In this document: positions 7,719 to 29,712 of the stretch, in pieces
Position numbering within the stretch: the first letter of the stretch is position 1
How the letters are laid out: each line of letters starts with the position of its first letter
DNA from: an uncultured Nitrososphaerota archaeon
GTDB taxonomy: Archaea; Asgardarchaeota; Njordarchaeia; Njordarchaeales; Panguiarchaeaceae
NCBI GenBank assembly: GCA_964636085.1
Contig: CAZWPQ010000010.1
Span: 1-36,140 of the forward strand
DNA length: 36,140 nucleotides
Reading direction: 5' to 3'
The notes under the pieces: model-generated
What the model was told of the DNA's origin: nothing
What the model saw: only the letters and a program-made list of their open reading frames with translations
Database searches by the model: none
Position numbers and translations under genes: made by a program

Positions 7719-8030
7719 TTGAGCAGTGACTGCGATCCAAACCTAGTATTTGAGCTCATCTCGGATATTTCGGATGCCCTTAAGGAAAAACCTGAAATGG
7801 AAGTATACCGCTACCTTAATATTCTTACTAGCTATCTTAAGGGCAAAAAATGCCCCAAGGAAGTTCTAGATAGAGCAATTAGAATACTAGAATCCCACTA
7901 TCCAAACCTCTCAGAGGGACGAAGACTCCTACTAAAGGAAGTTATAGATAAGATCCGTAAAGCGGGGAAATCTAGAAGAAGAACCAAAAAGGCTAAGAGA
8001 GGGAGAACTCGAAAATACCGAAGGCACTGA
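7719..8030 (+). CDS. Hypothetical small helical protein with a highly basic C-terminal tail
   Basis: 103-aa ORF directly after rnp2 with a GGTG SD-like site. Its 3' end overlaps the convergent PglZ-domain gene by 38 nt. Confidence 0.6.
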   Translation: MSSDCDPNLVFELISDISDALKEKPEMEVYRYLNILTSYLKGKKCPKEVLDRAIRILESHYPNLSEGRRLLLKEVIDKIRKAGKSRRRTKKAKRGRTRKYRRH

Positions 8031-10350
8031 AGGTTTCCTCAGGCGACAATCCACCGTGATATACGGCTCCCCTCCCTGGTAGGAACTTACGGTTTCCTTT
8101 GGGAAAAGCAACAATCACGCTATCTCCGCTTTTTATCCTTGTTAAAACTTCTGTACCTTTTCTCCTAAACTCAATCTCCTTCAATCCTAATTTGCCTCCA
8201 GTTGTAATCCAGAACCCCTCCCTGTACTCGTCATTGTTGGTGTATATTTGACGCGCACCCATGCTCAGTGACTCATCTTTTAATGGTATTATCGCATACC
8301 TCTCTCTTATAATTGGTTCAACGCCGACATCTATATATCCCTTCCGCTTTAAATCCTCCACATAATCCTCTATAGGCACATGCCTCAAAAAAACCCCTAG
8401 GCCATGATCAGAACATATTACAAGTCTTAGAAAGTTATATTGCTTGGATAGCTCCGTCATAATACACATTATCAACTCGACTATGCTATCAAGATACTCC
8501 TCAACAAAATGAACCATTATAGATTCAGTTGCTCCATGCATTGATTTTTCCAATTCACTTAATATAAAAAAGATCTTGTCGGAGTGTATAGACTGCCTCC
8601 TAAATCTGTTTATCATCATACCTATGGGGCCATAATAATATTCTACATCACCATATTTAGCCTTTATTATATCCTCCTCTCTTTGCCTATATTGCTTACT
8701 AAATACTAAGCTCCTAACTGCTTCCCCCAACATTATGGATGTTCTAGATATAATTGTAATTGATGGGAGTAGAGATATCTTAGGACCCAATTTAACAGGT
8801 TTAAGTCCGGTACGAATCAACTTAGGGACAAGACCCAAAATGAAATCATCATACCTAAGTCCATCTATTATAAGAGCCACATTGACCACTCCCTTTGGGC
8901 TTCCATTATAGAATACATCCATAAGTGCGCTGGAAGTAAAAATATCAAGCCTCAACTTTGTAAGCTCGTTATATGAGTTCAATAGTAGATACTCCCAACG
9001 TTTGCTTAGCTTATCATAGACATTATTAATTCTCTTCATTACCCTTATTAAAGCTGGGGTATCGCCAAACAAACGCTTCACCTTAGAGGAAAAAACATTA
9101 GCTAGACTCCTTGATTCCATAAAACAAGCTATGGGGTCAATTAAATCTTCAATTTTTTTAGGAGTTAGATTAACAAACTTTTCCGCCTTTGCCAGCGATG
9201 ATAAAAACTTCTTTAGTAATAGTAAACGCTGAGGAGGCCTAACATGCGCGTCCTTAAAGTATTTACAGACCTTCGTAACATATTTTCTAATTGCTAGCAC
9301 ACCCCCTTGAAGCTCCCAAGGTATTACCAGTGCTATACCCCTTGGTTTCAGCCTTAACTCATATAGAACATCATTGATTCGTCTTAGCCTATATTTTCCT
9401 CTACGAATGGATAGAGCTATAATTCTCTTAGAAGAAAAACCCCGATAGGAATTAACTAATGTTGCCAACTTTACAATTTTTGGCAATATACTACTAGAGA
9501 TTAATTGCCTCGCCAATAAATAAAAACTCCAGCCACCATGAATCTCCGCGATTCTTTGCAGATATATAGCGTCCAATAGAAGGCCTACATTAGAGTCGCA
9601 AATAAATTCCAGAATATCAAACAGGACACTAATTGGATAGCTCTGCTCATTAGATTCGACTAGTTGATTAAAAATCTCCTCAATAATCAATAGTTTTAGT
9701 GGTTCCTTTATGGAGCAGGTAGCTACAAATACGGATAAAACTATACCCTCGAGTATGTTTATTGATCTACGGTCCCTAGATGAAAAAAAATGTTGTATTA
9801 TTCCATCATTAATATCACTCAGACCCCTACCATATAACAATCGAATTGCTAGGTCCAATCTTTGAAAAGGAGCAACAAAGGAGTTAGCTTTTGTTATTTT
9901 CCCCAGTATCGATTTAACTTCATCTAGCAAAACTAGTAAATCTAGTTTGGATGCCCTATCGATTTGTAGCATAACCTCCTTTCTAGGGATAATACCAATA
10001 CTATGAACAACTTGGCCACCCCTGAGAAAACCCTCAATCAAAAACAACAAATCCCTTATAGCATCACTGTTCCTTGTCTGTATATATTCCCTCAATAACA
10101 TAAAAAAAGTTTTAACGAGATCCTCTATACTCAAGCCAGCAATATACCTGGCGCATTTCTCTATGAAATCTAATTGTTTTTTATCAGTAAACCATACGCG
10201 CTGGAGCAAACCTAGATCCCTTATTATTTCGTCTGAAAGCTCCCTCCTTCTCGCTGGATCCTCATGAATCATAGAATGAATAACTATCAACAGCTCTGAT
10301 ATGGGCGGGATTAGTCTGTCTAAGGTAGCGATTACAGCCTCCAACCTCAA
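7993..10350 (-). CDS. PglZ-domain (alkaline phosphatase superfamily) protein, standalone
   Basis: The C-terminal ~300 aa carry the PglZ motifs in order: ALIIDGLRYD, SLLPSITIISR, ELEKSMHG, ICSDHG, YHGGLSPEE. The N-terminal ~480 aa look alpha-helical and are unrecognised. Confidence 0.85.
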   Translation of the reverse strand: MRLEAVIATLDRLIPPISELLIVIHSMIHEDPARRRELSDEIIRDLGLLQRVWFTDKKQLDFIEKCARYIAGLSIEDLVKTFFMLLREYIQTRNSDAIRDLLFLIEGFLRGGQVVHSIGIIPRKEVMLQIDRASKLDLLVLLDEVKSILGKITKANSFVAPFQRLDLAIRLLYGRGLSDINDGIIQHFFSSRDRRSINILEGIVLSVFVATCSIKEPLKLLIIEEIFNQLVESNEQSYPISVLFDILEFICDSNVGLLLDAIYLQRIAEIHGGWSFYLLARQLISSSILPKIVKLATLVNSYRGFSSKRIIALSIRRGKYRLRRINDVLYELRLKPRGIALVIPWELQGGVLAIRKYVTKVCKYFKDAHVRPPQRLLLLKKFLSSLAKAEKFVNLTPKKIEDLIDPIACFMESRSLANVFSSKVKRLFGDTPALIRVMKRINNVYDKLSKRWEYLLLNSYNELTKLRLDIFTSSALMDVFYNGSPKGVVNVALIIDGLRYDDFILGLVPKLIRTGLKPVKLGPKISLLPSITIISRTSIMLGEAVRSLVFSKQYRQREEDIIKAKYGDVEYYYGPIGMMINRFRRQSIHSDKIFFILSELEKSMHGATESIMVHFVEEYLDSIVELIMCIMTELSKQYNFLRLVICSDHGLGVFLRHVPIEDYVEDLKRKGYIDVGVEPIIRERYAIIPLKDESLSMGARQIYTNNDEYREGFWITTGGKLGLKEIEFRRKGTEVLTRIKSGDSVIVAFPKGNRKFLPGRGAVYHGGLSPEETFSAFGIFEFSLS

Positions 10351-10864: not shown

Positions 10865-11773
10865 ATGTTAGTACTAATTCCCCTGGTACTTGTAGCGATC
10901 TTGATGACGATAATCATTATCAGAACTGATGTCGATGCTAATAGTTTTATCTTACTAGGATCAGTAATTGCGGGAATATTATATCTCTCATTTTGGGAAA
11001 AACCAACATATAACCTTCAACTTTTATTGGTACTGGCACTCTTCATAATAGCCCCTATTATAGGCATCGCTATATTTCTCGTCGATTATTTTTCAAAAAG
11101 ACGCAAGAAGGACTACGCATCCTGCTATGAGGACGAGATCAGGAGAAAAGCATTCCATTTCGTAGGATTTGCCGTATTTCTCCCAAAGACCGTGTATTGG
11201 ACCGCATATAACTTGGCGGTCACAGGCTTCAGCAATACATTCAACACAAGTATAGAGAACATGGGTCTTAATCATTCTGGGTACATTAGCTTCGTAATTT
11301 TCTTGATAACCTATCCACTACTGGTATTATTTACAATAACGGAGTTTGTAAGACTGAACTATAAACACGATCTATTCATCTCCTTGGTTAGAAAGGACGA
11401 ATCGAATAAAATGGCTTCATATTTGCATTCAACAGCATCCATATTCATCGTTTCATTACTGTTTTATCCATACAATAATATTGTTTGTGCTGCAATAGCT
11501 ATGGGGCTATTAGCCGATTTGGCAGCCTGTATTGTTGGTAAGAGGTACCACAAAATCGCATATAAAGATAGAAGTCTCGAAGGATTCATGGCTAACTTCT
11601 TAGTGGGGGCCATTGCAGGTTATTTCTTTGTGGGGGCAATAGCGATTATTGTTGGACTATTAATCGCCACCATAGATTTCCTCAATGGGGCACTTGAATT
11701 AAAGCTAAATGACAATTTCCTTTTCCCTGTACTAATCGCATTATTCCTATATCTCTTCCTCGTCGGCATTTAG
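10865..11773 (+). CDS. CTP-dependent polyprenol/diacylglycerol kinase (dolichol/phytol kinase family), integral membrane
   Basis: EIRRKAFH, R..E, ADLAACIVGK, RSLEG and LNDNFLFP, with many TM segments. Confidence 0.85.
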   Translation: MLVLIPLVLVAILMTIIIIRTDVDANSFILLGSVIAGILYLSFWEKPTYNLQLLLVLALFIIAPIIGIAIFLVDYFSKRRKKDYASCYEDEIRRKAFHFVGFAVFLPKTVYWTAYNLAVTGFSNTFNTSIENMGLNHSGYISFVIFLITYPLLVLFTITEFVRLNYKHDLFISLVRKDESNKMASYLHSTASIFIVSLLFYPYNNIVCAAIAMGLLADLAACIVGKRYHKIAYKDRSLEGFMANFLVGAIAGYFFVGAIAIIVGLLIATIDFLNGALELKLNDNFLFPVLIALFLYLFLVGI

Positions 11774-12237
11774 GTTATCTCATCATACAGAACAATTCGA
11801 TTTTGATCCACTTGAACCGTCTCACACAGATAGGGGGCTAACCTGAACTTTATATTTCTACCTTGTCTTCTAGACAAGAGTATTCCCTCTTTCTCCATTC
11901 TTCTAAGGTAAGTTATGACCGTTGACTGCTTTAGTTCGATATCATTTAGGTCTTGATAGGCCTCCTTGGCATCTCCAGATGTAAACCATTGACCATATCG
12001 GAACACCGACATTATTGTTTCCTTAAAGGAGGAGTATATACTCTGTTTTGCTTGGGTCGAGATGTTAGTTCTAGATGTTTCACGGATTCTTGGGTGATCT
12101 CTTCTAGTAAAAATATTGGAAGCGATGGGATATATCAAATACTTTATCGCATCCAATGTAGCTCCATCAATATCCCCCTCTGCCTTAACATCTACCTCTA
12201 TGTCTCCAACTTTCAATCTTATATGTAGCTTGGGCAT
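11770..12237 (-). CDS. Winged-helix DNA-binding protein
   Basis: C-terminal wHTH (QWFTSGDAKEAY...STVITYLRRMEKEGILLSRRQGRNIKFRL) and a short N-terminal beta-hairpin domain. Confidence 0.75.
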   Translation of the reverse strand: MPKLHIRLKVGDIEVDVKAEGDIDGATLDAIKYLIYPIASNIFTRRDHPRIRETSRTNISTQAKQSIYSSFKETIMSVFRYGQWFTSGDAKEAYQDLNDIELKQSTVITYLRRMEKEGILLSRRQGRNIKFRLAPYLCETVQVDQNRIVLYDEIT

Positions 12238-17975: not shown

Positions 17976-18863
17976 CTATCTCTTATAGATTTCGAGAATA
18001 ACCTCATGGTCCAAATTTACTTCAAATCCAAGCCTTTCTTTGATTTCCTCCACCATTTTCTGTGGTGCACGGAATCCAAGTACATCGGTTAGATCCGCTG
18101 TGAGTTTTTCCCCTATATCCAGTGCACTAAATTTTGGCTTGAGTTGTTGAGCGAGTTTTTCCAGCTTGTCTATTATTGATCTGGCCTCACTCATACATTT
18201 TCCCTTCCCGCTTCCCCTACATGTTCCATCTCCTATATAGATACATGGAGGGCCTGCGCCATCGAATATATTTGGATGGACAATAAGACCAGCCAGCAAC
18301 AAGGCATATGCGACCGTTCTTATCTCCCATTGCGCGTCAAAACATGTTCTCTGATAAATTATGTGTAGAAGCTCCTCTGGATCGAATGCAGATGATATAT
18401 GGGTCTTTACACCTATGGGCAGAGCAAATCTAGCATCCTCTGGGGGCACACCAGCCTCCAGCAATCTCAGATATATCTGACCGCACCTTATATTGTTCTC
18501 TATATAGTCTATGACTGCATCAACCCCCCTCCTTGTTATTTCAGGGGGGATAATAAACCAATCAGTACTCTTTGTGTCGACCTTGACATATCTTAGGCTT
18601 TGTTGCATATGGGCCGCTATCCTATACCTGACCCATTGATGGGTAAAGCTCCTCGAAACACCACTTATAGATACAATATAATAACCAAAATCAAGCACAG
18701 AGGAAAGTCTAAGCTTCTTTGTGATCCTTATCATCTGTCCTATCTGCTTATCGCTTACACCAATGTCTGGCCCAGGTAACCTAGATCTCGTTGCTAGGGC
18801 ACCTTTTACCATTATCTCCTCAGCGTCCCTTATGTAGTCCCATAATATAATCCTCATAGTCAT
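17976..18863 (-). CDS. thyX: FAD-dependent thymidylate synthase ThyX (divergent)
   Basis: ISGVSRSFTHQWVRYRIAAHMQQSLRYV (a variant of RHRx7SxR), EDARFALP, AQWEIR and a C-terminal GPPC...C...C motif. Coupled to glyA. Confidence 0.9.
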   Translation of the reverse strand: MTMRIILWDYIRDAEEIMVKGALATRSRLPGPDIGVSDKQIGQMIRITKKLRLSSVLDFGYYIVSISGVSRSFTHQWVRYRIAAHMQQSLRYVKVDTKSTDWFIIPPEITRRGVDAVIDYIENNIRCGQIYLRLLEAGVPPEDARFALPIGVKTHISSAFDPEELLHIIYQRTCFDAQWEIRTVAYALLLAGLIVHPNIFDGAGPPCIYIGDGTCRGSGKGKCMSEARSIIDKLEKLAQQLKPKFSALDIGEKLTADLTDVLGFRAPQKMVEEIKERLGFEVNLDHEVILEIYKR

Positions 18864-20103
18864 CCACCTTGAAACAGTATTTTACCTCTCTAAATCTACT
18901 TCTTAACTCAATAACCTCTCCAATAACATGCTTGCCCTTGTCCAGAATCTTATCAAACAGCTCGGCTATATGCGACATTTCTTCTTCCTTCATCCCAAGC
19001 CTAGTCATTTCTTGGACCCCTATTCTTATCCCGCTTGGATTTAATGTTGCATCTTTATCTGAATCCCATGGCAACGCGACTTTAGTAACAATAATATTAT
19101 TTTCCTCCAGTTTATCCGCCACGATTTTGCCCCCTCCCAACTCTCTAACATCAATCAAGACTTGATGGGATTCGGTAAAACCCTTATGTGGACAAAGCAC
19201 CTTAAAACCATACGAATATAGCTCTTCGGCAAGTTTTTTAGCATTCCTTATGACTTGTTCCGCATATTCTTGCCCAAACCTATTCATCTCGAGAATCGTA
19301 ATTGCTAGAGCGGGTAGCCTGTGGATATGATGATTATAGATAACTCCTGGAAAGGTAACCCTCTCAATTTTTTTCCAGACATTCTCCTCGAGATCCCTTC
19401 TTGCTATTATTATCCCGCCTTGAGGCCCAGGAAATGTTTTATGTGTAGACGAGGTAAGAATGTCCGCACCTTCACTAAGCGGATCTTGGAATTTACCTCC
19501 CCAAATAAGACCAAATATGTGTGCAACATCATATACTATCTTTATCTTTGGATCAATCGAGTCCCTTATCTCCTTAATAGGTTCTGGGAAAAGAACAACA
19601 GATCTACCAAAAACAACAATTTTTGGTCTTACATTGTTGATAAGTTCTATCGTCTTATCCACATCCATAACCATGTTCTCCCAATCAAAAAATGCCGGTA
19701 CCTCACCTATCCCCAAAATCCCTGCAACACCATACCTCGTATGGGAAACATGCGCACCAGCAGTCAAACGAGGGGACACTAAAATATCCCCTGGTTTTGT
19801 TAATGCCTTGAAGACAATAAGATTCGCGATCCCTCCACTTAGAGGCCTCGGCTCCACATATCTAGTATCAAACCTTTCTCCTACAAGCTCTTTCACAAGG
19901 GCCTCTATCTCCATAGCATACTTTGTGCCCTGGTAGTGGCTTTCACCATTATGTTCATTATATCTGCTCATAAAATCCGAGAGATACACGGCTTCCGCGA
20001 GAGGAGACATTAGATTTTCCGAGGCAACAAGGTTTATACATTCGTACCTTCTCCAAGTATTCTGGGAATTCACAATATCTAATACGTGCTTTACATCAAT
20101 CAA
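18820..20103 (-). CDS. glyA: Serine hydroxymethyltransferase (archaeal type)
   Basis: INLVASEN, GAHVSH, YDVAHIFGL, PLP-lysine motif SSTHKTFPGPQGG, NHHIHR, SGIRIGVQEMTRLG. Confidence 0.94.
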   Translation of the reverse strand: MIDVKHVLDIVNSQNTWRRYECINLVASENLMSPLAEAVYLSDFMSRYNEHNGESHYQGTKYAMEIEALVKELVGERFDTRYVEPRPLSGGIANLIVFKALTKPGDILVSPRLTAGAHVSHTRYGVAGILGIGEVPAFFDWENMVMDVDKTIELINNVRPKIVVFGRSVVLFPEPIKEIRDSIDPKIKIVYDVAHIFGLIWGGKFQDPLSEGADILTSSTHKTFPGPQGGIIIARRDLEENVWKKIERVTFPGVIYNHHIHRLPALAITILEMNRFGQEYAEQVIRNAKKLAEELYSYGFKVLCPHKGFTESHQVLIDVRELGGGKIVADKLEENNIIVTKVALPWDSDKDATLNPSGIRIGVQEMTRLGMKEEEMSHIAELFDKILDKGKHVIGEVIELRSRFREVKYCFKVDDYEDYIMGLHKGR

Positions 20104-20245
20104 AATCGATCACCCACAAAGACATTTAACTACCACAAAAAATAATGGAATTACGCTAGCATTACCTCCAAAAGATTAACTTTTTCTGGTTTGATTTATC
20201 CTTCGTTTTAGATATATGTGACATAATATATTACTGGGGGAGAAA

Positions 20246-21526
20246 GTGAGAATACACGTAATTACGACCGGATGCTCCATCAACCGGGCCATGGGAGAGA
20301 TACTCAAGAGTATAATTTCCAAGCACTACACGCTAAGTGATCTAGGTTCTGCTGATTTTGTGATTCTAAACCTATGCACCATTAAAAAGGCTACGGAGGA
20401 TAAAGGAATAGAACTCGCCAAAAAAATTTCAGGAATGGGTAAAAGGGTCATAGTGACTGGATGCTTGGCTGAGAGTTCATATAGTAGAATCCAGAGACAA
20501 GTTCCTGATGCAAGTATTATTAGCGCTGGATATTTCCTAGAAACAAACATCGTAGAAATCATCAATTCCATTCTCCAGAGAGGCAAACTAATAATTGTTG
20601 GGAAAGACCTAGATCTCCACTATCCTATTGACTACATCCCCGACAACCAATATATTGGGATAATACCAATCGCTTTAGGATGCACCAATAATTGTAGCTA
20701 TTGCATCGACGTAAGAATCTGGGGCCGAGTAAGAAGTATACCACCCAACGAAATAGTCAAACAAGTAGAAAAACTTATACAGCATGGAGCAAGGGAGATC
20801 AGATTAACAGCACACGATACCGCTGCCTATGGAATCGACATAGGATACAATCTTGCGGATCTATTGGAGCGAATTCTTAGCATTGATTACGAATTCAGGA
20901 TCAGAATAGGTATGGCCTCTCCTAATACATTTGAATTGATCTCTGATGCGCTCCTAGACATAATCTCGAAGGAAAGAAGAATCTATAAATTTGTTCACAT
21001 ACCAGTTCAATCAGGATCAAATAGAATACTCAAACTGATGAATAGGCCCTATACGGTCGAAGAATACATAAGTCTATTCCAAAAGATCAGAAGAAAGCTA
21101 GGCGAAACAGCTACAATAGCTACAGACGTAATTTCTGCATTCCCAACAGAAACCGAAGAAGACCATAAAGCAACTATGGAGCTACTCAAAAAATTAGAAC
21201 CTGACGTTGTTAATTTATCCCGGTATGGCGACCGACCAGGAACACCATCGTCAAAACTACGTCCTAAAATACATAGCAAGATCGCTAAAAGAAGAACCAG
21301 AGAACTCTTTGAACTCATCAAGAAGATCGCATATAAGAGAAATCTGGCATTCCTCGGCAAGAAAATCAATGTATTATTCCTTGAAAAGAAGGGCCAATAT
21401 TGTGGAAGATCATTCAACAACAGACTCGTATTCACAAACGACCCTGTGAAACTAGGTGAATTCAAAACAGTTAAGATAACAAACGTGACTTGGAAATGTC
21501 TCTATGGAACCCCAGAAACTACTTAA
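20246..21526 (+). CDS. tRNA methylthiotransferase, MiaB family (archaeal MtaB/CDKAL1-like; UPF0004 + radical SAM + TRAM)
   Basis: TTGCSIN, NLCTIK and VTGCL (UPF0004 cysteines), CTNNCSYC radical-SAM motif, HIPVQSGS, FPTETEED and a C-terminal TRAM domain. Confidence 0.92.
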   Translation: MRIHVITTGCSINRAMGEILKSIISKHYTLSDLGSADFVILNLCTIKKATEDKGIELAKKISGMGKRVIVTGCLAESSYSRIQRQVPDASIISAGYFLETNIVEIINSILQRGKLIIVGKDLDLHYPIDYIPDNQYIGIIPIALGCTNNCSYCIDVRIWGRVRSIPPNEIVKQVEKLIQHGAREIRLTAHDTAAYGIDIGYNLADLLERILSIDYEFRIRIGMASPNTFELISDALLDIISKERRIYKFVHIPVQSGSNRILKLMNRPYTVEEYISLFQKIRRKLGETATIATDVISAFPTETEEDHKATMELLKKLEPDVVNLSRYGDRPGTPSSKLRPKIHSKIAKRRTRELFELIKKIAYKRNLAFLGKKINVLFLEKKGQYCGRSFNNRLVFTNDPVKLGEFKTVKITNVTWKCLYGTPETT

Positions 21527-21853
21527 CAATGTGAATAAAGATACAGGCATTCATAGCCCCAACACGTAGCGTAAATACCATGAAATATGGGATATACATA
21601 TCCTGATGATTACCCACAAGGTCACTGACTCCCTTCTTACATATGGAGCCTCTAAAAAAATATATGCAATCAGATATCCAAAAAAGCGGCCCATAGAAAA
21701 GGCCTGATAGCCAAAAATCTCGGCTAAACAGAAAGCATGATAAGGAAAAAATGCAGAAGAAAGAAATTGCCTCGTAGAACACACAGGTTCCTAAAATAAA
21801 ACTAAGGTGTAGCTAGAGTATTACAGGACCAAGCTAATATGTATCTATATACA

Positions 21854-21871
21854 TCCAGTAGAAACGAGGGG
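21854..21871 (+). promoter_or_regulatory. Origin recognition box (ORB) with G-string
   Basis: TCCAGTAGAAACGAGGGG fits the archaeal ORB consensus TCCA.t.GAAA....GGGG. Confidence 0.75.
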
Positions 21872-21986
21872 CCGTAGAGTAACTGAACTCCAAAAATAGT
21901 AGTAAAACAGCATCAATCATAGTAGTTCTTGGGGTTAACTATTATTTCACAAATGAGTTAAGAATACTGTCCTCTACGTCAGGAGA

Positions 21987-22006
21987 CCCCTCATTTCAAG
22001 TGGAAC
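21987..22006 (-). promoter_or_regulatory. Origin recognition box (ORB) with G-string
   Basis: Minus strand reads GTTCCACTTGAAATGAGGGG. It is 15/18 identical to the ORB at 21854 and inverted relative to it. Confidence 0.8.
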
Positions 22007-22125
22007 ATCTTGTCTTGATCATTCTGATGTTTTTTTATGTTAATCTCGACAAAATGAGGTTTTTTCATTATATTCAAAGCAAAAAAACGAGAATATTGAC
22101 TAATACCGATAATTTGCCTTGATTT

Positions 22126-22140
22126 TCTTCCACTGGAAGA
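22126..22140. promoter_or_regulatory. Palindromic mini-ORB-like element
   Basis: TCTTCCA-C-TGGAAGA is a perfect dyad. The minus strand reads TTCCAGTGGAA, the ORB core, without a G-string. Confidence 0.5.
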
Positions 22141-22147
22141 TCCGTGT

Positions 22148-22729
22148 CTAGTAAATCTTGTTTACGGCTACAATATAGCCGGCTCCAAGAGCAAATATAC
22201 CCAATGGGAATAATAGCGCGGAACAAATCACCATATGGAGGGGCAGGAATATCCACGCGAGGAGTATTGGAATTATGAATAATATCCCTATCAGTGTTGC
22301 TTCTAAACTTCTAAAGAACACTATTCCGAACCCAATAAGTAGGATTGTTCCAATAATCCCCAATATTCCAATAAATACTAGAAATAGCCAAAACAACAAT
22401 ATATCCCCAACGAGCTCACTAATAGTCTCAGCCTCTTCCGCTCCAAAGTCTATAATCAACAAACCGAAGAAGGAAATGCTAAATCCCATGAATCCATGCG
22501 AAATAGATAGTCCTGTTGCTGCAGATCCTGATCCAGCCTCTCGTAGCGATATTGGACCAAGAAGCCCTGAGGCGAAAAGTATTCCAGAAATAACCATTAA
22601 ATATCCATATGTAATCAAACTGATCGCTTCAATGAGTACTAAACTGTTTGCGACTAGTTGTATTATTCCTCCAGTAATCGTGAGTATTCCTCCAAATAAT
22701 CCAGTTTGTTTCGGTTCCACATTTACCAC
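22148..22729 (-). CDS. Hypothetical Gly-rich multi-pass membrane protein
   Basis: 193 aa, almost entirely hydrophobic, about 5-6 TM helices. Start may be GTG 22720. Confidence 0.75.
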   Translation of the reverse strand: MVNVEPKQTGLFGGILTITGGIIQLVANSLVLIEAISLITYGYLMVISGILFASGLLGPISLREAGSGSAATGLSISHGFMGFSISFFGLLIIDFGAEEAETISELVGDILLFWLFLVFIGILGIIGTILLIGFGIVFFRSLEATLIGILFIIPILLAWIFLPLHMVICSALLFPLGIFALGAGYIVAVNKIY

Positions 22730-22806
22730 CTTTTTAATGCTTCAATATCTAAAAAATACTAATAAGAAATCATTGGATCATTGTAGATTCTAGTATGTAC
22801 CCTTGA

Positions 22807-25449
22807 TTGATAGTGATCGATGTGGGGTCGGATAGGAGGATCCTAAGAATAAGGAAGAGGCCTCCGAGTGATAAGGAGATATACTCGCTGTTGAGGCCAT
22901 ATACAGCTGAGTGGTTTAGAAGGACATTTAGAAGATTTTTGGAGCCTCAGCGTTATGCTATCCCGCTGATAAAGGCTAAGAAGAATGTATTGATTTTCTC
23001 GCCGACTGGGAGCGGGAAGACTTTGGCAGCCTTTTTAGGGATTCTGGATGAGTTATTTAAACTGGGGGAGCAGGGCCGATTGGAGGATAAGGTCTACTGT
23101 ATCTATGTTTCTCCTCTCCGGGCTCTTAGTAATGATATAAGGAAGAATCTTCAGATGCCCTTGGATGGTATAAGGACTGTGGCAGAAGAAATGGGCTATG
23201 AGCTTCCTGAAGTTAGAGTTTTTGTAAGGCATGGTGATACTTCATCTTCACAGCGTTCTAAGATGCTTAGAAAACCGCCTCATATTTTGATTACTACCCC
23301 TGAAAGCCTGGCCAATATGCTTCTTGCACCGAAATTTAGGTATAAGCTATATGATGTTGAGTGGGGGATTATTGATGAGGTTCATGAGCTCTCGGATAAT
23401 AAGAGAGGAGTCCATCTAAGTCTTTCTTTGGAGAGGCTACATTATTTCTCTGGTGGTTTTGTAAGGATTGGTTTATCAGCAACACAGGCCCCAGTAAAGG
23501 AAATCGCCAAGTGGCTTGTTGGTTTCGAAGATGATGGTAGGCCAAGGCAGTGTTATATCGTTCAAGTATTGGGTATCAAAAAGTTGGATTTGAAAGTTCT
23601 CTGCCCAACGGAAGATCTTAGGCGGAGGGAGTTTTCCTCGAGGAAGATGTATGGGATGCTTAAGGAGATCGTTAGGAGATACCATACTACTCTAATTTTT
23701 ACGAATACTAGGTCTGGTGCTGAGGCTGTTGCGTATAAGTTAAAGAAAGAGCTTGGGAAAAGGTGGAGTAAAAAAATTGGTGTTCATCATTCATCTCTAG
23801 GGAGGGAAATAAGACTTGGTGTTGAGGATGCCCTAAAACAGGGAAAATTGAGGGCCGTTGTTACTTCTACATCGTTGGAGTTGGGCATAGATATTGGCTA
23901 TATTGACCTGGTCGTCCAAATAGGTTCTCCTAGATCCGTTATTAAGGGTCTTCAGAGGATTGGAAGGGCTGGCCATGCTATACATCGGGTGTCTAAAGGT
24001 AGGTTTATGGCCTTAGACGAGGATGATTTAGTAGAGTTGCTGGTTTTGACTAAGTGTGCACATGAAGGGAAATTGGATCGGATTACAATACCCAAGAATT
24101 GTTTAGATATACTTGCGCAACACTTGGTTGCGATGAGTATAGAAAAGAAATGGAATGTCATGGATGCATATCGTGTTGTGAAAAGGTCGTATAATTTTCA
24201 CGATTTAGAGTACGGCGAGTTTCTTTCTGTTCTGTACTACCTTGCAGGTAAGCATGTTGATTTAGAATATCAGAAGGTCTATCGTAAACTATGGTTCGAT
24301 GAGAAAGAGGGTGTTTTTGGCAGAAAAAGAATGGCCCGCATGATCTATTATTTGAATCAAGGCGCGATTCCAGATGAAGCGGATTATAAAGTTTATCTAA
24401 GACGGAATAGCCGGAGAATCTGGATGGGGAACCTATCCGAACCATTTGTTGAGAGGCTTATTCCAGGAGACGTATTTATTTTGGCTGGTCGGAAATATAA
24501 GGTCAATGGAATAAAGAGCGATACTGTGATAGTAACGGAGGCCAAGGAGGCGAATCCTACAGTTCCATCTTGGATAGGCGAACAGCTACCGCGTTCCTTT
24601 GATCTATCATGGGAAATAGGCAAATTTAGAGAGAAAATTGAGCGTCTTATTAGGAAGGGAGATATCGATACTGCTAGGGGAATATTGAGGGAAGAGTACG
24701 GAGCTGATGAAAACATTATCAATAATGTGCTAAGGTATTTCCGGGATCAGATAAGATATCTGGGTCGTGTACCAACTCATAAAAGGATCATTTTAGAGAA
24801 GTGGATTGACGAGTATGGTCGCGTTCATGTAATATTTCATGCTGCTTATGGCCGGAGAACTTGTGATGCCCTAGCTAGATTTTTTGCCTATGTTGCATCA
24901 GAGATCTATCTATGTAATGTAGGGATAGGTGTGACTGATAACGGTTTTGACCTGATTTTTCCCAAATTTGTTGATCCCGTACCGAGTAGGATAATAGAAA
25001 AAGCAATGGGAACGGATTTTGAGCTTGCTTTAAAGAAAGCCATAAAGAATACTGAGCTCTTTGTTAATAGGTTTAGGCATGTTGCCAATAGGTCATTTAT
25101 GATATTGCGGAGGTATAAGGGTACGGAGATATCTGTGAGGAAGCAGAGAATAAAAGCTAGTACGTTGGTTAGGCTTCTTCCAGATGATTTTCCAGTTATA
25201 AGGGAGACATATAGGGAAGTGTTGGAAGATTATATGGATTTGAATCATGCTAAATATGTTTTTGACGCTATTAAGAGCGGTATGATTAAGGTTATATATG
25301 CCGAGAAAAAAGATTCGAGAACACTAAGTCCGTTTGCTCATGGTATTGTTCTAGCGGCACTCAGTGATGTGCTGACTATGGCGGACCGGGAGAGATGGAT
25401 CCTGGCGATGTATGAAAGAATTAAGAAGCTATTTGGGGATAAAGGTTAG
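22807..25449 (+). CDS. lhr: Lhr-family SF2 helicase (archaeal Lhr core)
   Basis: SPTGSGKT, YVSPLRAL, RHGDT, ILITTPESL, DEVH, GLSAT, VHHSSL, SLELGIDIG, QRIGRAGH, PTVPSWIGE and RFRHVANR. Confidence 0.95.
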   Translation: MIVIDVGSDRRILRIRKRPPSDKEIYSLLRPYTAEWFRRTFRRFLEPQRYAIPLIKAKKNVLIFSPTGSGKTLAAFLGILDELFKLGEQGRLEDKVYCIYVSPLRALSNDIRKNLQMPLDGIRTVAEEMGYELPEVRVFVRHGDTSSSQRSKMLRKPPHILITTPESLANMLLAPKFRYKLYDVEWGIIDEVHELSDNKRGVHLSLSLERLHYFSGGFVRIGLSATQAPVKEIAKWLVGFEDDGRPRQCYIVQVLGIKKLDLKVLCPTEDLRRREFSSRKMYGMLKEIVRRYHTTLIFTNTRSGAEAVAYKLKKELGKRWSKKIGVHHSSLGREIRLGVEDALKQGKLRAVVTSTSLELGIDIGYIDLVVQIGSPRSVIKGLQRIGRAGHAIHRVSKGRFMALDEDDLVELLVLTKCAHEGKLDRITIPKNCLDILAQHLVAMSIEKKWNVMDAYRVVKRSYNFHDLEYGEFLSVLYYLAGKHVDLEYQKVYRKLWFDEKEGVFGRKRMARMIYYLNQGAIPDEADYKVYLRRNSRRIWMGNLSEPFVERLIPGDVFILAGRKYKVNGIKSDTVIVTEAKEANPTVPSWIGEQLPRSFDLSWEIGKFREKIERLIRKGDIDTARGILREEYGADENIINNVLRYFRDQIRYLGRVPTHKRIILEKWIDEYGRVHVIFHAAYGRRTCDALARFFAYVASEIYLCNVGIGVTDNGFDLIFPKFVDPVPSRIIEKAMGTDFELALKKAIKNTELFVNRFRHVANRSFMILRRYKGTEISVRKQRIKASTLVRLLPDDFPVIRETYREVLEDYMDLNHAKYVFDAIKSGMIKVIYAEKKDSRTLSPFAHGIVLAALSDVLTMADRERWILAMYERIKKLFGDKG

Positions 25450-26226
25450 TTTTTTAGAATTTACAAATAATCCCATAAATAGGCCAATTATCCCACTCCA
25501 AACACTAAGAGAGCTCGCTAATACCAACATTTCTACGAGCGAGGGCCTGGATGTCATTGCTGTAGCGATTGTAGATCCTATATAGGCCGATATTCCACCA
25601 GCTTTTGCTCTTCCACTTATTATCCCTGAAATAATCCCTATAAGGCAATACTGGGCAAGCATTGCGGGGGTTATCAGGAATAGTTCACCGGGAGGTATGT
25701 TGGCATAGATGTATAGGAATAGTCCGTTAATAATCATAGCAAACACGAATGTTAATGGTATTGAAACTGGTAGGACTTTTTTGTCATCGGATCTTATTTC
25801 TGGTAGGATTCTTGTTGATTTTCTGATTATTTTATTGACTATCCCATTGAGTTTTTTCTCTATGTCCTCGGACAATATGGAGAATCCCTCTACAGCACTG
25901 GCCTCGAGAAGCAACTCTTCTGCTTCATGTACAAAGTTTTTTAGGAAATTTATTGTGGCTTGTCTAGGATCTAGAGCGTCGGATAGAATTGTGAACCAGA
26001 AGATTCTGTCTCGCATTTTTAGAGGAAAGAAGCTCATTGCTATATCTCCAAAATCTATTCTTTGAGGCCTCGCAATTATTTCGTGGCCAAATTTGATGAT
26101 GGCGCTAATGAAACCAGCAATCATTGTTGGCTCATACTTCTTGAGCAAATCTCGTGGTGCTTTGGGATGAAGCCATGAATATACTAGCGTCCCTGAGGAA
26201 TCGATAACGAGTATATTCCATATTAT
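25429..26226 (-). CDS. Longin-like domain protein with four C-terminal TM helices (probable non-canonical ATA start)
   Basis: The frame stays open upstream of the ORF-track TTG (26148), giving IIWNILVIDSSGTLVYSW...EPTMIAGFISAIIKFGHEI...IDFGDIAMSF...FWFTILSD. This beta-beta-alpha-beta-beta-beta-alpha-alpha pattern resembles longin domains. SD-like GTGAGGGG lies 6 nt before ATA 26226. Confidence 0.7.
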   Translation of the reverse strand: MIWNILVIDSSGTLVYSWLHPKAPRDLLKKYEPTMIAGFISAIIKFGHEIIARPQRIDFGDIAMSFFPLKMRDRIFWFTILSDALDPRQATINFLKNFVHEAEELLLEASAVEGFSILSEDIEKKLNGIVNKIIRKSTRILPEIRSDDKKVLPVSIPLTFVFAMIINGLFLYIYANIPPGELFLITPAMLAQYCLIGIISGIISGRAKAGGISAYIGSTIATAMTSRPSLVEMLVLASSLSVWSGIIGLFMGLFVNSKKLTFIPK

Positions 26227-26293
26227 TTTCGACCCCTCACTTCTCCATCCTTGATTAATAAAAATTTGTTTAATAATTATCCAATTAGGGGAT

Positions 26294-27094
26294 ATGAAAA
26301 TGTTGGGCTCTGCCAGTAGTGATATCAGGCGTGCACGATCGGGATTTTATAGTGTGGGTGTGGCCTATGTATTCGCTATAATCACATTAATTGCTGAAGT
26401 TATTTCTGCAATGCTTGTATTGCTCCAGTCATCTGGGCTATTGGAACAAAGTATTGTTATTGATTACATTACGATAAGCTCTCTTATCGCCGCGTTTGTA
26501 TGTGCTGCCATTGCATTGTTTGTTTTAGGTAAGATGATCGTATACATTGTACGGTTATTTATATCGTTATTCTTGGTATGGGTTACGCTTGGATATATAT
26601 ATTATGTGAGTTATTCTAGTAATAGCAGTGAAATGCAGTTGGCATCTATTGTTTCCCTAATACTGTTTGCAGTGATTACCGTGATATTCTATGCATCTGT
26701 TATTATTCAGAAGGGAATGCTTAATCTTATAAATGAATACAAGGTCTCAATAGAGCGTTTAGAAGACCATTTAACTCGTGTTGCACCAAATATCTCTAGG
26801 GATGATGCGGCTCAACTGCTAAAATTTTTGGGAGGAGCCAAGAGGACATGGAGTTCGTTTATTAAAAGTACTGTTGCTGGTTCTGATGTAGCGAGAGTGT
26901 TCTATAAGTCTTTGCTAGTTACTAACATATTCTTCATGACTTCGCTATTCCTGAGTGATATGGGGGTAGTAGATTTTATGAGTACCTATGGCATGGATGT
27001 GTTGATACTGTTGATCGTTTTTACAATTGTTGTCACTATTTTGGATGTTACAAGGGTTGAAAAAATGAGGAAGCGAATCATGGGCCGTGCCTAG
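26294..27094 (+). CDS. Hypothetical multi-pass membrane protein
   Basis: 266 aa: about 4 TM, a soluble helical insert, then about 2 TM. Divergent from the longin-like gene. Confidence 0.8.
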   Translation: MKMLGSASSDIRRARSGFYSVGVAYVFAIITLIAEVISAMLVLLQSSGLLEQSIVIDYITISSLIAAFVCAAIALFVLGKMIVYIVRLFISLFLVWVTLGYIYYVSYSSNSSEMQLASIVSLILFAVITVIFYASVIIQKGMLNLINEYKVSIERLEDHLTRVAPNISRDDAAQLLKFLGGAKRTWSSFIKSTVAGSDVARVFYKSLLVTNIFFMTSLFLSDMGVVDFMSTYGMDVLILLIVFTIVVTILDVTRVEKMRKRIMGRA

Positions 27095-27705
27095 TATTTC
27101 ATCATTTTTTCCCACTTCTTGATTATGGCTTCTCCGATAGCTCTAGCCATCCCCACTTGGATCTTTCTGGCCCTCTCAGCTCTCTGTCGCCAGTATTCTG
27201 CAGGTACAATAACACTATGCCCAGACGGATCTTTTAATAGAAGTGTAAGTTTACCAGAAGGTTTCTCAATTTCTTTCTCTAGGAGTTTAATTATATTTTT
27301 GGCCTTAGTTTTGTCCTCCGCATATTCTAGCAGTGACCGTGTTGCCTCTAAAATCTCTAGGAGTATTCCCTCTATTGTGGTTATATGTGATGCGTCAAAG
27401 TTTCTAATTTCAATTTCGGCTCCTATTTCGGGTATTATGATTGTTGCACCTGCACTAGCGCATACAAGATTATTTATCGTATCTTCAGAGATCTTTATTG
27501 TGTGTAATTGCTTATAGTTTCCCTTATCCATTATTGTCCAGATATCTGATACCTTAAATTTGCAAGTGTTACATATAATAGTGGTGATGAGTAACTGGCC
27601 TATGTAGGGGATGTTGATGTTTTTGTATAGCATTAAAAGTGTATCTTTTTTACAAAATGGACAGTTAATTTTTAGATTAGTTGTTTCAAACTGTGTATAA
27701 CTCAT
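27091..27705 (-). CDS. ZPR1-type zinc finger protein
   Basis: CPFC...IPYIG...CNTC, IIIPEIGAEIE, ITTIEGIL, LLLKDPSGHS. Confidence 0.92.
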   Translation of the reverse strand: MSYTQFETTNLKINCPFCKKDTLLMLYKNINIPYIGQLLITTIICNTCKFKVSDIWTIMDKGNYKQLHTIKISEDTINNLVCASAGATIIIPEIGAEIEIRNFDASHITTIEGILLEILEATRSLLEYAEDKTKAKNIIKLLEKEIEKPSGKLTLLLKDPSGHSVIVPAEYWRQRAERARKIQVGMARAIGEAIIKKWEKMMKY

Positions 27706-27729
27706 AAATATCCACCATGGTAAGTTCCA

Positions 27730-29712
27730 ATGAGTGGTATTCCCGACAATGTTAAGCAGAGATTATGTGAAATTTTAAAGATAAGCTTAGATGAGCTGGA
27801 CACTAAGATTAAAGATGTAACTAGGAAACATGATGTAGACGAGGTCGTTGCTGTTATTCACATATTAACGAAGGAGGGACTTATAGAAGTTGCAAGAGAT
27901 ATAATTGAAGATCTGCTCCTAAAAAGAAGTGTAGCACGGTTATCTGATCTAAAAATCGGCATGAAAGATATGACTATTGTTGGCCGCCTAGAAATATTGA
28001 AGGTTTTTGAATCCTCCGATAAATACTATGGAGTGATTCTTATTAGTGATGGGAAGACGTTCGGACAGATCTACATACCCAAAAGCTTGGCTAGCATTGT
28101 TCCAGAAGACTTAGCATTAAATGATATAGTGCTTGTGACAAAAGTTAATGTTGCTAGTATTCTAAAGAATAAAGTTTTAAGACTCTATCTGTCAGAGAAC
28201 GGCAAAATCGTAAAACTGTCTCCCGACAAAGCTAAAGAAGTAATGGGGACTGTTCCTCCACCAATACACATATATGGCGTAGCAGACCTACAGAGTGTTG
28301 ATGAAGGTGACTCTGCATATTGCCATATAAGGGGTATCCTGGTTAGGATTATAGGAGAAAAAAAATTCAATAATGCTAAATATAGCCAAGAGAATCTTCT
28401 TGTTCTCCTTGGCGACATCGAAAGTTTTTGTACTCACAGAATTTTATGCGTTTTGAGTGGCCGGGCAATTGATGAATTTAATAAGAACAAGCCTCTGCCA
28501 GGTGACATAATAGTAATTCATGGTGCCGTCGTCAGAAAACGGGAATCTAGATCATACGTTGTTGCTAGGAATATGGCTGTGATTGAGAAGATGGAGCCAC
28601 AACCAATTTCTCCAAGCGAGATAATGGAAGGTGGGATGTATTTGTTTAGGCTCTATGTGAGGTCATATCCAAGGATAAGGACATATTTAAAAGATTCAGG
28701 AGAATATAGATATGCTACCTTTCTCTGTAGTTCAGAATCCGATCAAAACGTTAGGGTTGTTGTGTGGAACGAATCATTGTTGGAAAAGGTTTCCAATCTC
28801 AAAGTTGGTTACATGGTTCGAATATGTGGTCTGGTTAGAAAGGGGACGCAGGTTGTGGAGATACATGTCCATAAAAATACTGGCGATATATCGGTAATTA
28901 GTACTGAAGAAAAACCCATATTTCCTATGTCAAAACGCGCTATTACAAGCATCTCTGACTTCAAACCTAACACGTTTGTTAATGCTATCTTAAGACTAGA
29001 TGATGTCAAGGAAATAGGAAGTGAAAAGCTAGCAGGTATTGTGACATTAACTGATGGGCTAGATAGAATAAAAATGCTGGTATGGGATAAGGACATGATT
29101 AGTAGGTTTACCAACCTAGTTGGAGATCTTATCCTTGTTAGAAATGCAAGAGTTACAGTCGAGAGAGATGTTGGTAATGTTATTCTCGCCACAACTAGGA
29201 AGACGGAGATAATTGAGTTAGCCAAAGATTTCAAGTATTGGATCCCTAAAGAATATCTAAGAAAAATAGGGCGATTTTGGATGATCTCGGATATTGAGCT
29301 AAATGTGGATTGTACAATTTCAGGAACAATAGTTAGGCTAGATTGGGTGGGGAAAATGTATTTTTGTAAAATATGTGGAGGCCTAATAGTGAACCCAGAA
29401 AAGGGAATATGCGAACTTGGTCACGTGGGAGATATTGTGGAAAAAACTGTTGTTTCAATCATTATTGATGATGGATTCGGAGAAATTAATGCCATTATAC
29501 CGAGTAGCGTCTTGAGAGTTGAAGAAGCTTCCACAGGCCTCGATGCTTCTCTATTAGGAACTCAAGTTTTTTTAAGTGGAATCCTAAAGATCGATTATAG
29601 CAGTGGCACTCCAGTGAAGGTCTTTATGGTCGAAAAACTAGAAGAGGAGAATGGGATCAAGTTTTTCCTCCAGAAAATGATAGACTATGAAAAGCAATTG
29701 CTTCAAAAGTAG
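27730..29712 (+). CDS. rpa: Replication protein A large subunit (multiple OB folds plus Zn finger)
   Basis: Repeated OB-fold signatures (LSDLKIGMKDMTIVG, VRVVVWNE, LTDGLDRIKMLVWD, IIIDDGFGEINA), C-terminal CKIC...CELGH Zn finger and an N-terminal helical domain. Confidence 0.82.
   Translation: MSGIPDNVKQRLCEILKISLDELDTKIKDVTRKHDVDEVVAVIHILTKEGLIEVARDIIEDLLLKRSVARLSDLKIGMKDMTIVGRLEILKVFESSDKYYGVILISDGKTFGQIYIPKSLASIVPEDLALNDIVLVTKVNVASILKNKVLRLYLSENGKIVKLSPDKAKEVMGTVPPPIHIYGVADLQSVDEGDSAYCHIRGILVRIIGEKKFNNAKYSQENLLVLLGDIESFCTHRILCVLSGRAIDEFNKNKPLPGDIIVIHGAVVRKRESRSYVVARNMAVIEKMEPQPISPSEIMEGGMYLFRLYVRSYPRIRTYLKDSGEYRYATFLCSSESDQNVRVVVWNESLLEKVSNLKVGYMVRICGLVRKGTQVVEIHVHKNTGDISVISTEEKPIFPMSKRAITSISDFKPNTFVNAILRLDDVKEIGSEKLAGIVTLTDGLDRIKMLVWDKDMISRFTNLVGDLILVRNARVTVERDVGNVILATTRKTEIIELAKDFKYWIPKEYLRKIGRFWMISDIELNVDCTISGTIVRLDWVGKMYFCKICGGLIVNPEKGICELGHVGDIVEKTVVSIIIDDGFGEINAIIPSSVLRVEEASTGLDASLLGTQVFLSGILKIDYSSGTPVKVFMVEKLEEENGIKFFLQKMIDYEKQLLQK

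Follow-up and report, generated by a model that had tools for sequence, protein, structure and literature searches.

Archaeal replication origins typically lie beside the gene for their initiator, and this cis linkage is dispensable for haloarchaeal ARS activity (PMC4010727). In Sulfolobus oriC1, Orc1 monomers occupy inverted ORBs with a defined polarity and recruit MCM to the DNA between them, within a 130-bp ORB3-DUE-ORB2 core (PMC12141716); the winged helix of the initiator reads the dyad, and its AAA+ initiator-specific motif (ISM) reads the G-rich part (bioRxiv 10.64898/2026.08.15.744077). An ORB element of this class is made up of a TTCCAGTGGAAA-like dyad, the mini-ORB, with a G-rich run after it (PMC4153887, Table 2; PMC1904270), and a TTCC/GAA core is important for Cdc6 binding in Pyrococcus (PMC1904270). 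The origin of Odinarchaeum was placed by skew alone (PMC9246712); in the literature searched, Asgard origins have so far been placed by skew only, and no paper discussing a Njordarchaeales origin was found.

Here, we analysed the first 36,140 bases (the window) of the 66-kb scaffold C10 from a 2.41-Mb Njordarchaeota MAG (G000; 102 contigs, 83% complete). With high confidence, a non-coding spacer in this window (Table 1) is predicted to be a chromosomal origin of the canonical archaeal oriC1/ORB type, served in trans by an Orc1-1-type initiator encoded on contig C6, and is probably the principal or sole origin of this genome. The spacer resembles oriC1 of Sulfolobus/Saccharolobus in being intergenic, in having two full inverted ORBs about 115-130 bp apart together with a further ORB, and in the Orc1-1-type AAA+/winged-helix initiator assigned to it (PMC12141716, PMC4010727); ORB-spacer-ORB spans 151 bp here, against the 130-bp Sulfolobus core. 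However, Sulfolobus oriC1 lies directly upstream of orc1-1, whereas the orc1 gene considered here is on another contig, and the Sulfolobus inter-ORB region is highly AT-rich and carries the essential ucm motif, whereas the inter-ORB spacer of the window is not AT-rich. The oriC of Pyrococcus abyssi likewise combines long ORBs and 13-bp mini-ORBs with a TTCC...GAA core, an inverted pair and a skew switch (PMC1904270), but it adjoins cdc6/orc1 and contains many mini-ORBs, whereas the window has three elements only. An ORB-type (ORB/DUE/ORB) origin without a neighbouring orc1/cdc6 or other initiator gene has been described in Hyperthermus butylicus (bioRxiv 10.64898/2026.08.15.744077, Fig. 1 legend), so an origin lacking an adjacent initiator gene is not unprecedented, although H. 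butylicus belongs to a different phylum, Thermoproteota, the likeness is one of description, and the Njordarchaeota case is computational. The orc1-adjacent ORB clusters of other Asgard families (L035-L051, L142) share with the spacer a near-identical word (TCCAGTGGAAAYGAAGGG versus TCCAsTnGAAAyGAGGGG), an orthologous initiator and co-occurring TTCACA hexamers; in those families about 2 kb at most separates the ORBs from orc1, a linkage absent from this order and from the loci sampled in families f9 and f27.

Table 1. Features of the predicted origin, its surroundings and the two initiator genes. Positions are those of the window unless another contig is named.
Feature	Position	Strand	Details
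Putative left replichore segment	1-21853		Plus strand C-rich whatever the gene direction; GC3 skew -0.16 (+ genes), -0.32 (- genes)
MiaB-like-B tRNA methylthiotransferase (left flank)	20246-21526		TIGR01578, 348 bits
Predicted oriC	21527-22147		Whole 621-bp non-coding spacer, 3' ends of two convergent genes on either side
Conserved island	21812-21822		GCTAGAGTATT, 11 nt, shared unchanged by G000 and G002; ~30 bp to the left of ORB1
ORB1	21854-21871	+	Dyad core TCCAGTAGAAA and G-run GAGGGG, G-run rightward; 18-mer TCCAGTAGAAACGAGGGG
Inter-ORB spacer	21872-21986		115 bp; one TTCACAA element at 21946-21952
ORB2	21983-22006	-	GTTCCACTTGAAATGAGGGGTCTC, G-run leftward
AT-rich tract	22007-22125		T7 and A7 runs, 73% AT
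Palindromic mini-ORB	22126-22140		TCTTCCACTGGAAGA, TTCC...GAA core, without G-run
Putative right replichore segment	22141-36140		Plus strand G-rich whatever the gene direction; GC3 skew +0.30 (+ genes), +0.08 (- genes)
Polytopic membrane protein (right flank)	22148-22729	-	
orc1/cdc6, full-length	C6:22848-23927		AAA+, lid and Cdc6_C winged-helix domains; 387 bits (TIGR02928, Cdc6_C)
orc1/cdc6, full-length	C1:175117-176232		AAA+, lid and Cdc6_C winged-helix domains; 215 bits (TIGR02928, Cdc6_C)

The coordinates of ORB1 and ORB2, their 15/18 identity, their inverted, face-to-face G-runs and the 115 bp between them had been given in the original prediction, and all proved exact; the third dyad that it had placed beyond a T/A-rich stretch, and the methylthiotransferase and membrane protein that it had named as flanks, were also recovered. 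The reverse complement of 21987-22006 in ORB2 is GTTCCACTTGAAATGAGGGG, and the 18-mer itself occupies 21987-22004 (-). Except at 2-3 dyad positions and for one base less between dyad and G-run, the two 18-mers follow the ORB consensus published for archaea (CTTCCAGTGGAAACGAAAGGGGT) and for Methanomassiliicoccales (GTTCCAGTGGAAATGG-AGGGGTA; PMC4153887, Table 2), and the TTCC/GAA core is present in them, ORB1 lacking the first T of TTCC. A dyad with a G-rich run and an inverted pair of ORBs, as in the Orc1/Cdc6-dependent ORB-type class, are thereby both found in the spacer, while the features of a WhiP/Cdt1-type origin (Sulfolobus oriC3), namely a neighbouring whiP gene and an IR/ucm/IR layout that lacks ORBs, are not: canonical ORBs exist, and the flanking genes encode the methylthiotransferase and the membrane protein, not whiP. 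In the 2.41 Mb of the assembly, the pattern TCCAnTnGAAAyGAGGGG has two matches at 0-1 mismatch, both in the spacer, and three at 2 mismatches; the spacer is also the sole place in the genome where two TCCAnTnGAAA cores occur within 600 bp, so that ORB-like pairs, rather than being common genome-wide, are represented by this one alone.

The spacer is long for its setting, with convergent gene pairs of this genome separated by a median gap of 28 bp and gaps reaching 620 bp in 8% of cases, and because its flanking genes converge, it contains the promoter of neither. A known ncRNA was ruled out by an Rfam search that returned zero spacer matches at the gathering threshold or at E<=0.01. Two small minus-strand ORFs (21519-21782 and 21551-21784) were treated as non-coding, no conserved counterpart being present at any locus or elsewhere in the genome, and the small ORFs of the spacer yielded one sub-threshold PEN-2 match and nothing more.

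Profile searches with TIGR02928 and Cdc6_C detected two full-length orc1/cdc6 genes on other contigs (Table 1) and none on the whole of scaffold C10, which extends to the 66 kb the absence that had been noted for the window. The contig ends put a minimum of ~45 kb between the C6 gene and the ORBs, and orc1 and the ORB cluster are on different contigs in 5/5 relatives tested, as expected for the origin served in trans that the original prediction had proposed. Neither ORBs nor a skew switch were found beside either orc1 gene of this genome; upstream of the C6 gene there is just a loose TTCCACCAACTGG, and the C1 gene is preceded by an aIF1A-like gene, with no large spacer. Directly downstream of the C6 Orc1-1-type gene lies an archaeal RNase P RNA (RF00373, 123 bits; locus L001, 1048-1367, -). 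Our survey of 251 Asgard genomes revealed TCCAsTGGAAAyGAGGGG (at most one mismatch) in 54 and a control pattern in 3, the commonest Asgard form being TCCAGTGGAAAyGAAGGG, and the canonical ORB word is thus conserved over much of the phylum. An ORB lies within ~2 kb of an orc1 in six Asgard families (f7, f8, f10, f14, f15 and f20), and the distance to the closest orc1 is 4.3 kb in family f22. The ORB-linked Asgard proteins share 41-47% identity with the C6 protein versus ~27-33% with the C1 protein; the C6 gene is therefore orthologous to the initiator that is linked to the origin elsewhere, and its position away from the ORBs is a derived state. This separation is not unique to the order, since no orc1 occurs within 8-9 kb of the ORBs at the loci sampled from families f9 and f27; among Asgard families, some have lost the initiator-origin linkage and others have retained it. 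Family f9 (L140, L141) also displays two ORB-bearing sites ~4.2 kb apart.

Our analysis of strand composition revealed that most contigs are uniformly all-minus or all-plus in GC skew over 30-180 kb, and this replication-type asymmetry is unusually clear for an archaeon; the coding strand accounts for much of the uniformity. Coding-strand GC skew is +0.20 for genes on the G-rich strand and +0.076 for genes on the other strand, and 67% of 1,147 genes (29 contigs) lie on the G-rich strand, which was therefore assigned as leading, a minus-to-plus flip thus denoting an origin. When the coding-strand effect was subtracted and a single change-point scan was run over 34 contigs, the strongest change-point was that of C10 (t=8.4; residual -0.089 to +0.097, minus-to-plus), located at the gene boundary 22729/22807, within ~0.8 kb of the ORBs, and its t value was reached in 0/2000 permutations. 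The runner-up contig (|t|=4.2) had the opposite polarity, and no significant minus-to-plus change-point was present on the other contigs scanned. The resolution of the change-point is about one gene, and the membrane gene immediately right of the ORBs still has a left-like composition. The switch occurs inside one contiguous, gap-free contig and is independent of gene orientation, and the plus-strand-G-rich pattern right of the ORBs runs through the remainder of the scaffold. Weaker plus-to-minus change-points on C27 (~17.1 kb) and C2 (~92 kb; t=-3.1 and -3.4, respectively) are terminus-region candidates. Strand asymmetry of this kind offers a way of placing MAG contigs on replichores and of testing assemblies.

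Within the order, the 18-mer (GAAm allowed) was found in 9/14 genomes, at one locus per genome, and the reversed-pattern control gave 0. Of the eight relatives' loci, seven carry 2-4 clustered ORB-like elements and one, that of G004, a single element; six contain an inverted pair (one plus-strand element, then one minus-strand element) with a gap of 45-118 bp, and in G006 the second element is weak. The spacing is conserved, at 115 bp in the window and 117, 118 and 114 bp in G002, G013 and G010. In family f3, extra minus-strand elements are often present ~250 bp to the left and ~150 bp to the right, and, like the mini-ORB of the window, an ORB-like element follows the main minus-strand ORB at ~140-160 bp. 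The relatives' clusters retain the syntenic position, their neighbours being those seen in the window (MiaB-like, Lhr, EndA and a small wHTH gene), with local rearrangements. Alignment with G002, from the same genus, exposed conserved islands amid diverged DNA, namely the ORB1 core (ATCCAGTAGAAA, identical in G002 with diverged surroundings), ORB2, the mini-ORB, kept in position and sequence (TTTTTTCCACTCGAA), and the 11-nt block left of ORB1. The MiaB-ORB cassette of G002 (L027, 8301-9975) is inverted, compared with window 20246-22147, relative to the SHMT/ThyX and Lhr blocks; this inversion between G000 and G002 is small and centred on the origin. G011, from another family, shares a 24-nt ORB2 block at 96% identity, and blastn of the whole spacer against 40 relatives returned this block and two short chance-level matches only; the spacer is otherwise not conserved beyond the genus. 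The skew flip, independent of gene strand, recurs at 8/8 relatives' ORB loci. On 400 kb of contig C1 of G009, from another family, the lone sign change (t=6.7) lies 3-5 kb from the lone ORB cluster, and all nine 40-kb blocks left of that cluster (360 kb) have negative residuals, with gene orientation balanced (163+/162-); G009 thus has skew without a gene-orientation bias.

The main alternative to an origin is a satellite or regulatory Orc1-binding site, in which the ORBs would be real and replication would start at another place, such as in the 17% of the genome that is not assembled. A non-origin ORB cluster of this sort is documented in the Pyrococcus dp1 gene (PMC1904270), and in a MAG that is 83% complete, another origin or an orc1-linked ORB set could reside in unassembled DNA. 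Nevertheless, the only strong origin-polarity switch of the assembly coincides with the ORBs, as it does at 8/8 relatives' loci and on the 400-kb contig, no ORBs are near either orc1, and the convergent flanking genes leave no promoter of theirs in the spacer to regulate; we regard a satellite site as unlikely. We consider it highly unlikely that other sites of the chromosome fire too, in the manner of Sulfolobus or haloarchaea, with the spacer being just one origin among them or an origin that was silenced recently. Archaea commonly have more than one origin (PMC4010727), this genome encodes two orc1 paralogues, and skew is mixed on contigs C8, C15 and C17, but the assembly contains neither a second significant minus-to-plus change-point nor a second ORB cluster, and uniform skew on contigs up to 179 kb, and over 360 kb in G009, suggests few origins. 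Inverted 18-mers can serve as operators and MAG contigs can be chimeric, but a chance inverted repeat or unrelated transcription-factor site, with the skew switch arising from rearrangement or an assembly chimera, is excluded for practical purposes because of the conservation data, the motif equalling the published ORB consensus (PMC4153887) and standing beside orc1 in other Asgard families, and the flip recurring at the same motif in nine independent assemblies and falling within a gap-free contig here.

For the spacer as an ORB-type origin, we infer Orc1 binding to the ORBs, an unwinding site and firing by analogy with Sulfolobus oriC1. C6-encoded Orc1-1-type monomers would bind ORB1 and ORB2 in opposite polarity, with the winged helix on the TCCAnTnGAAA dyad and the AAA+ ISM on the G-run, and the palindromic mini-ORB would provide a third, weaker site. 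The bound initiators would then load MCM onto adjacent DNA, either the 115-bp spacer, which the G-runs face, or the 75%-AT tract that separates ORB2 from the mini-ORB, and forks would depart bidirectionally from the spacer. In Sulfolobus and Aeropyrum, the AAA+/G-run side faces the unwinding element, a polarity that would point to the 115-bp spacer as the unwinding site. The inverted dyad/G-run ORBs agree with the oriC1-type architecture of the original prediction, and the AT-rich tract lies outside the pair. At 64% AT, the inter-ORB spacer does not differ from the non-ORF background, and the AT-richest stretch of the whole spacer (22015-22114, 75% AT, 99.2nd percentile of the genome's 100-bp windows) falls between ORB2 and the mini-ORB. 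Both the inter-ORB spacer and the AT-rich tract of Table 1 are therefore uncertain candidates for the unwinding element, and AT content near the ORBs varies inconsistently among relatives. A ucm-like homology was rejected as too short, the Sulfolobus ucm (ATTATACAAAC, read from the oligonucleotides of PMC12141716) agreeing with ATTTCACAAAT of the spacer at 8/11 positions. The locus thus provides two defined components that can be tested without culture: a cis element of 150-290 bp and, as candidate trans factor, the C6 Orc1.

When all 6-mers of the nine ORB regions were compared without bias against the flanks, TGTGAA/TTCACA occurred 35 times versus 2.6 expected (13.6-fold), in 9/9 loci, and ranked alongside the hexamers of the ORBs. 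Around the ORBs of other Asgard families (25 loci), it occurs 6.1 times per kb versus 0.9 times per kb in the flanks; across the loci (L027-L034, L035-L059), it often forms inverted pairs, and only the hexamer core is conserved. The window spacer has two copies, at 21530 and 21946, the latter near the middle of the inter-ORB spacer. TTCACA is possibly a second cis element of the origin, comparable to the Sulfolobus ucm. A wHTH gene homologous to one in the window is the immediate neighbour of the ORB cluster (~200-600 bp) in families f3, f9, f14 and f20 and in the same-genus G004 (L028-L034, L045-L051, L141), at least five families in all; its product is a candidate origin-associated factor, and together this gene and the hexamer hint at a possible accessory origin factor. 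The window copy (11770-12237, -) is situated 10 kb from the ORBs; its 155-aa product has weak similarity to PadR/ArsR/BlaI-type winged helices, and its close homologues come only from Njordarchaeota-like contigs. That Asgard origins carry TTCACA as a second, phylum-wide cis element with a linked accessory wHTH gene, as an analogue of Sulfolobus ucm/UBP, is a tentative and still rather doubtful proposal; the authors of the ucm/UBP study ask whether other lineages possess such accessory factors (PMC12141716). If it were true, the coupling of orc1 to the origin would have been broken in Njordarchaeales, with the wHTH/TTCACA partner largely retained.

Several other genes of the window were noted. 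The only match of the 785-aa protein encoded at 7993-10350 (-), to a PglZ domain (E=4.7e-4), falls short of the Pfam cut-off. The Lhr-type helicase (22807-25449) has as its closest named match a contig of 'Candidatus Njordarchaeota archaeon B13_G17' (75% identity), on which no ORB occurs within 6 kb either side of lhr; the lhr-ORB linkage is therefore not universal. Together with ThyX and SHMT, this helicase belongs to a group of DNA-metabolism genes near the predicted origin (17976-29712), with EndA and PyrB farther to the left, and a 660-aa OB-fold protein in the same region (27730-29712) has weak similarity to replication factor A.
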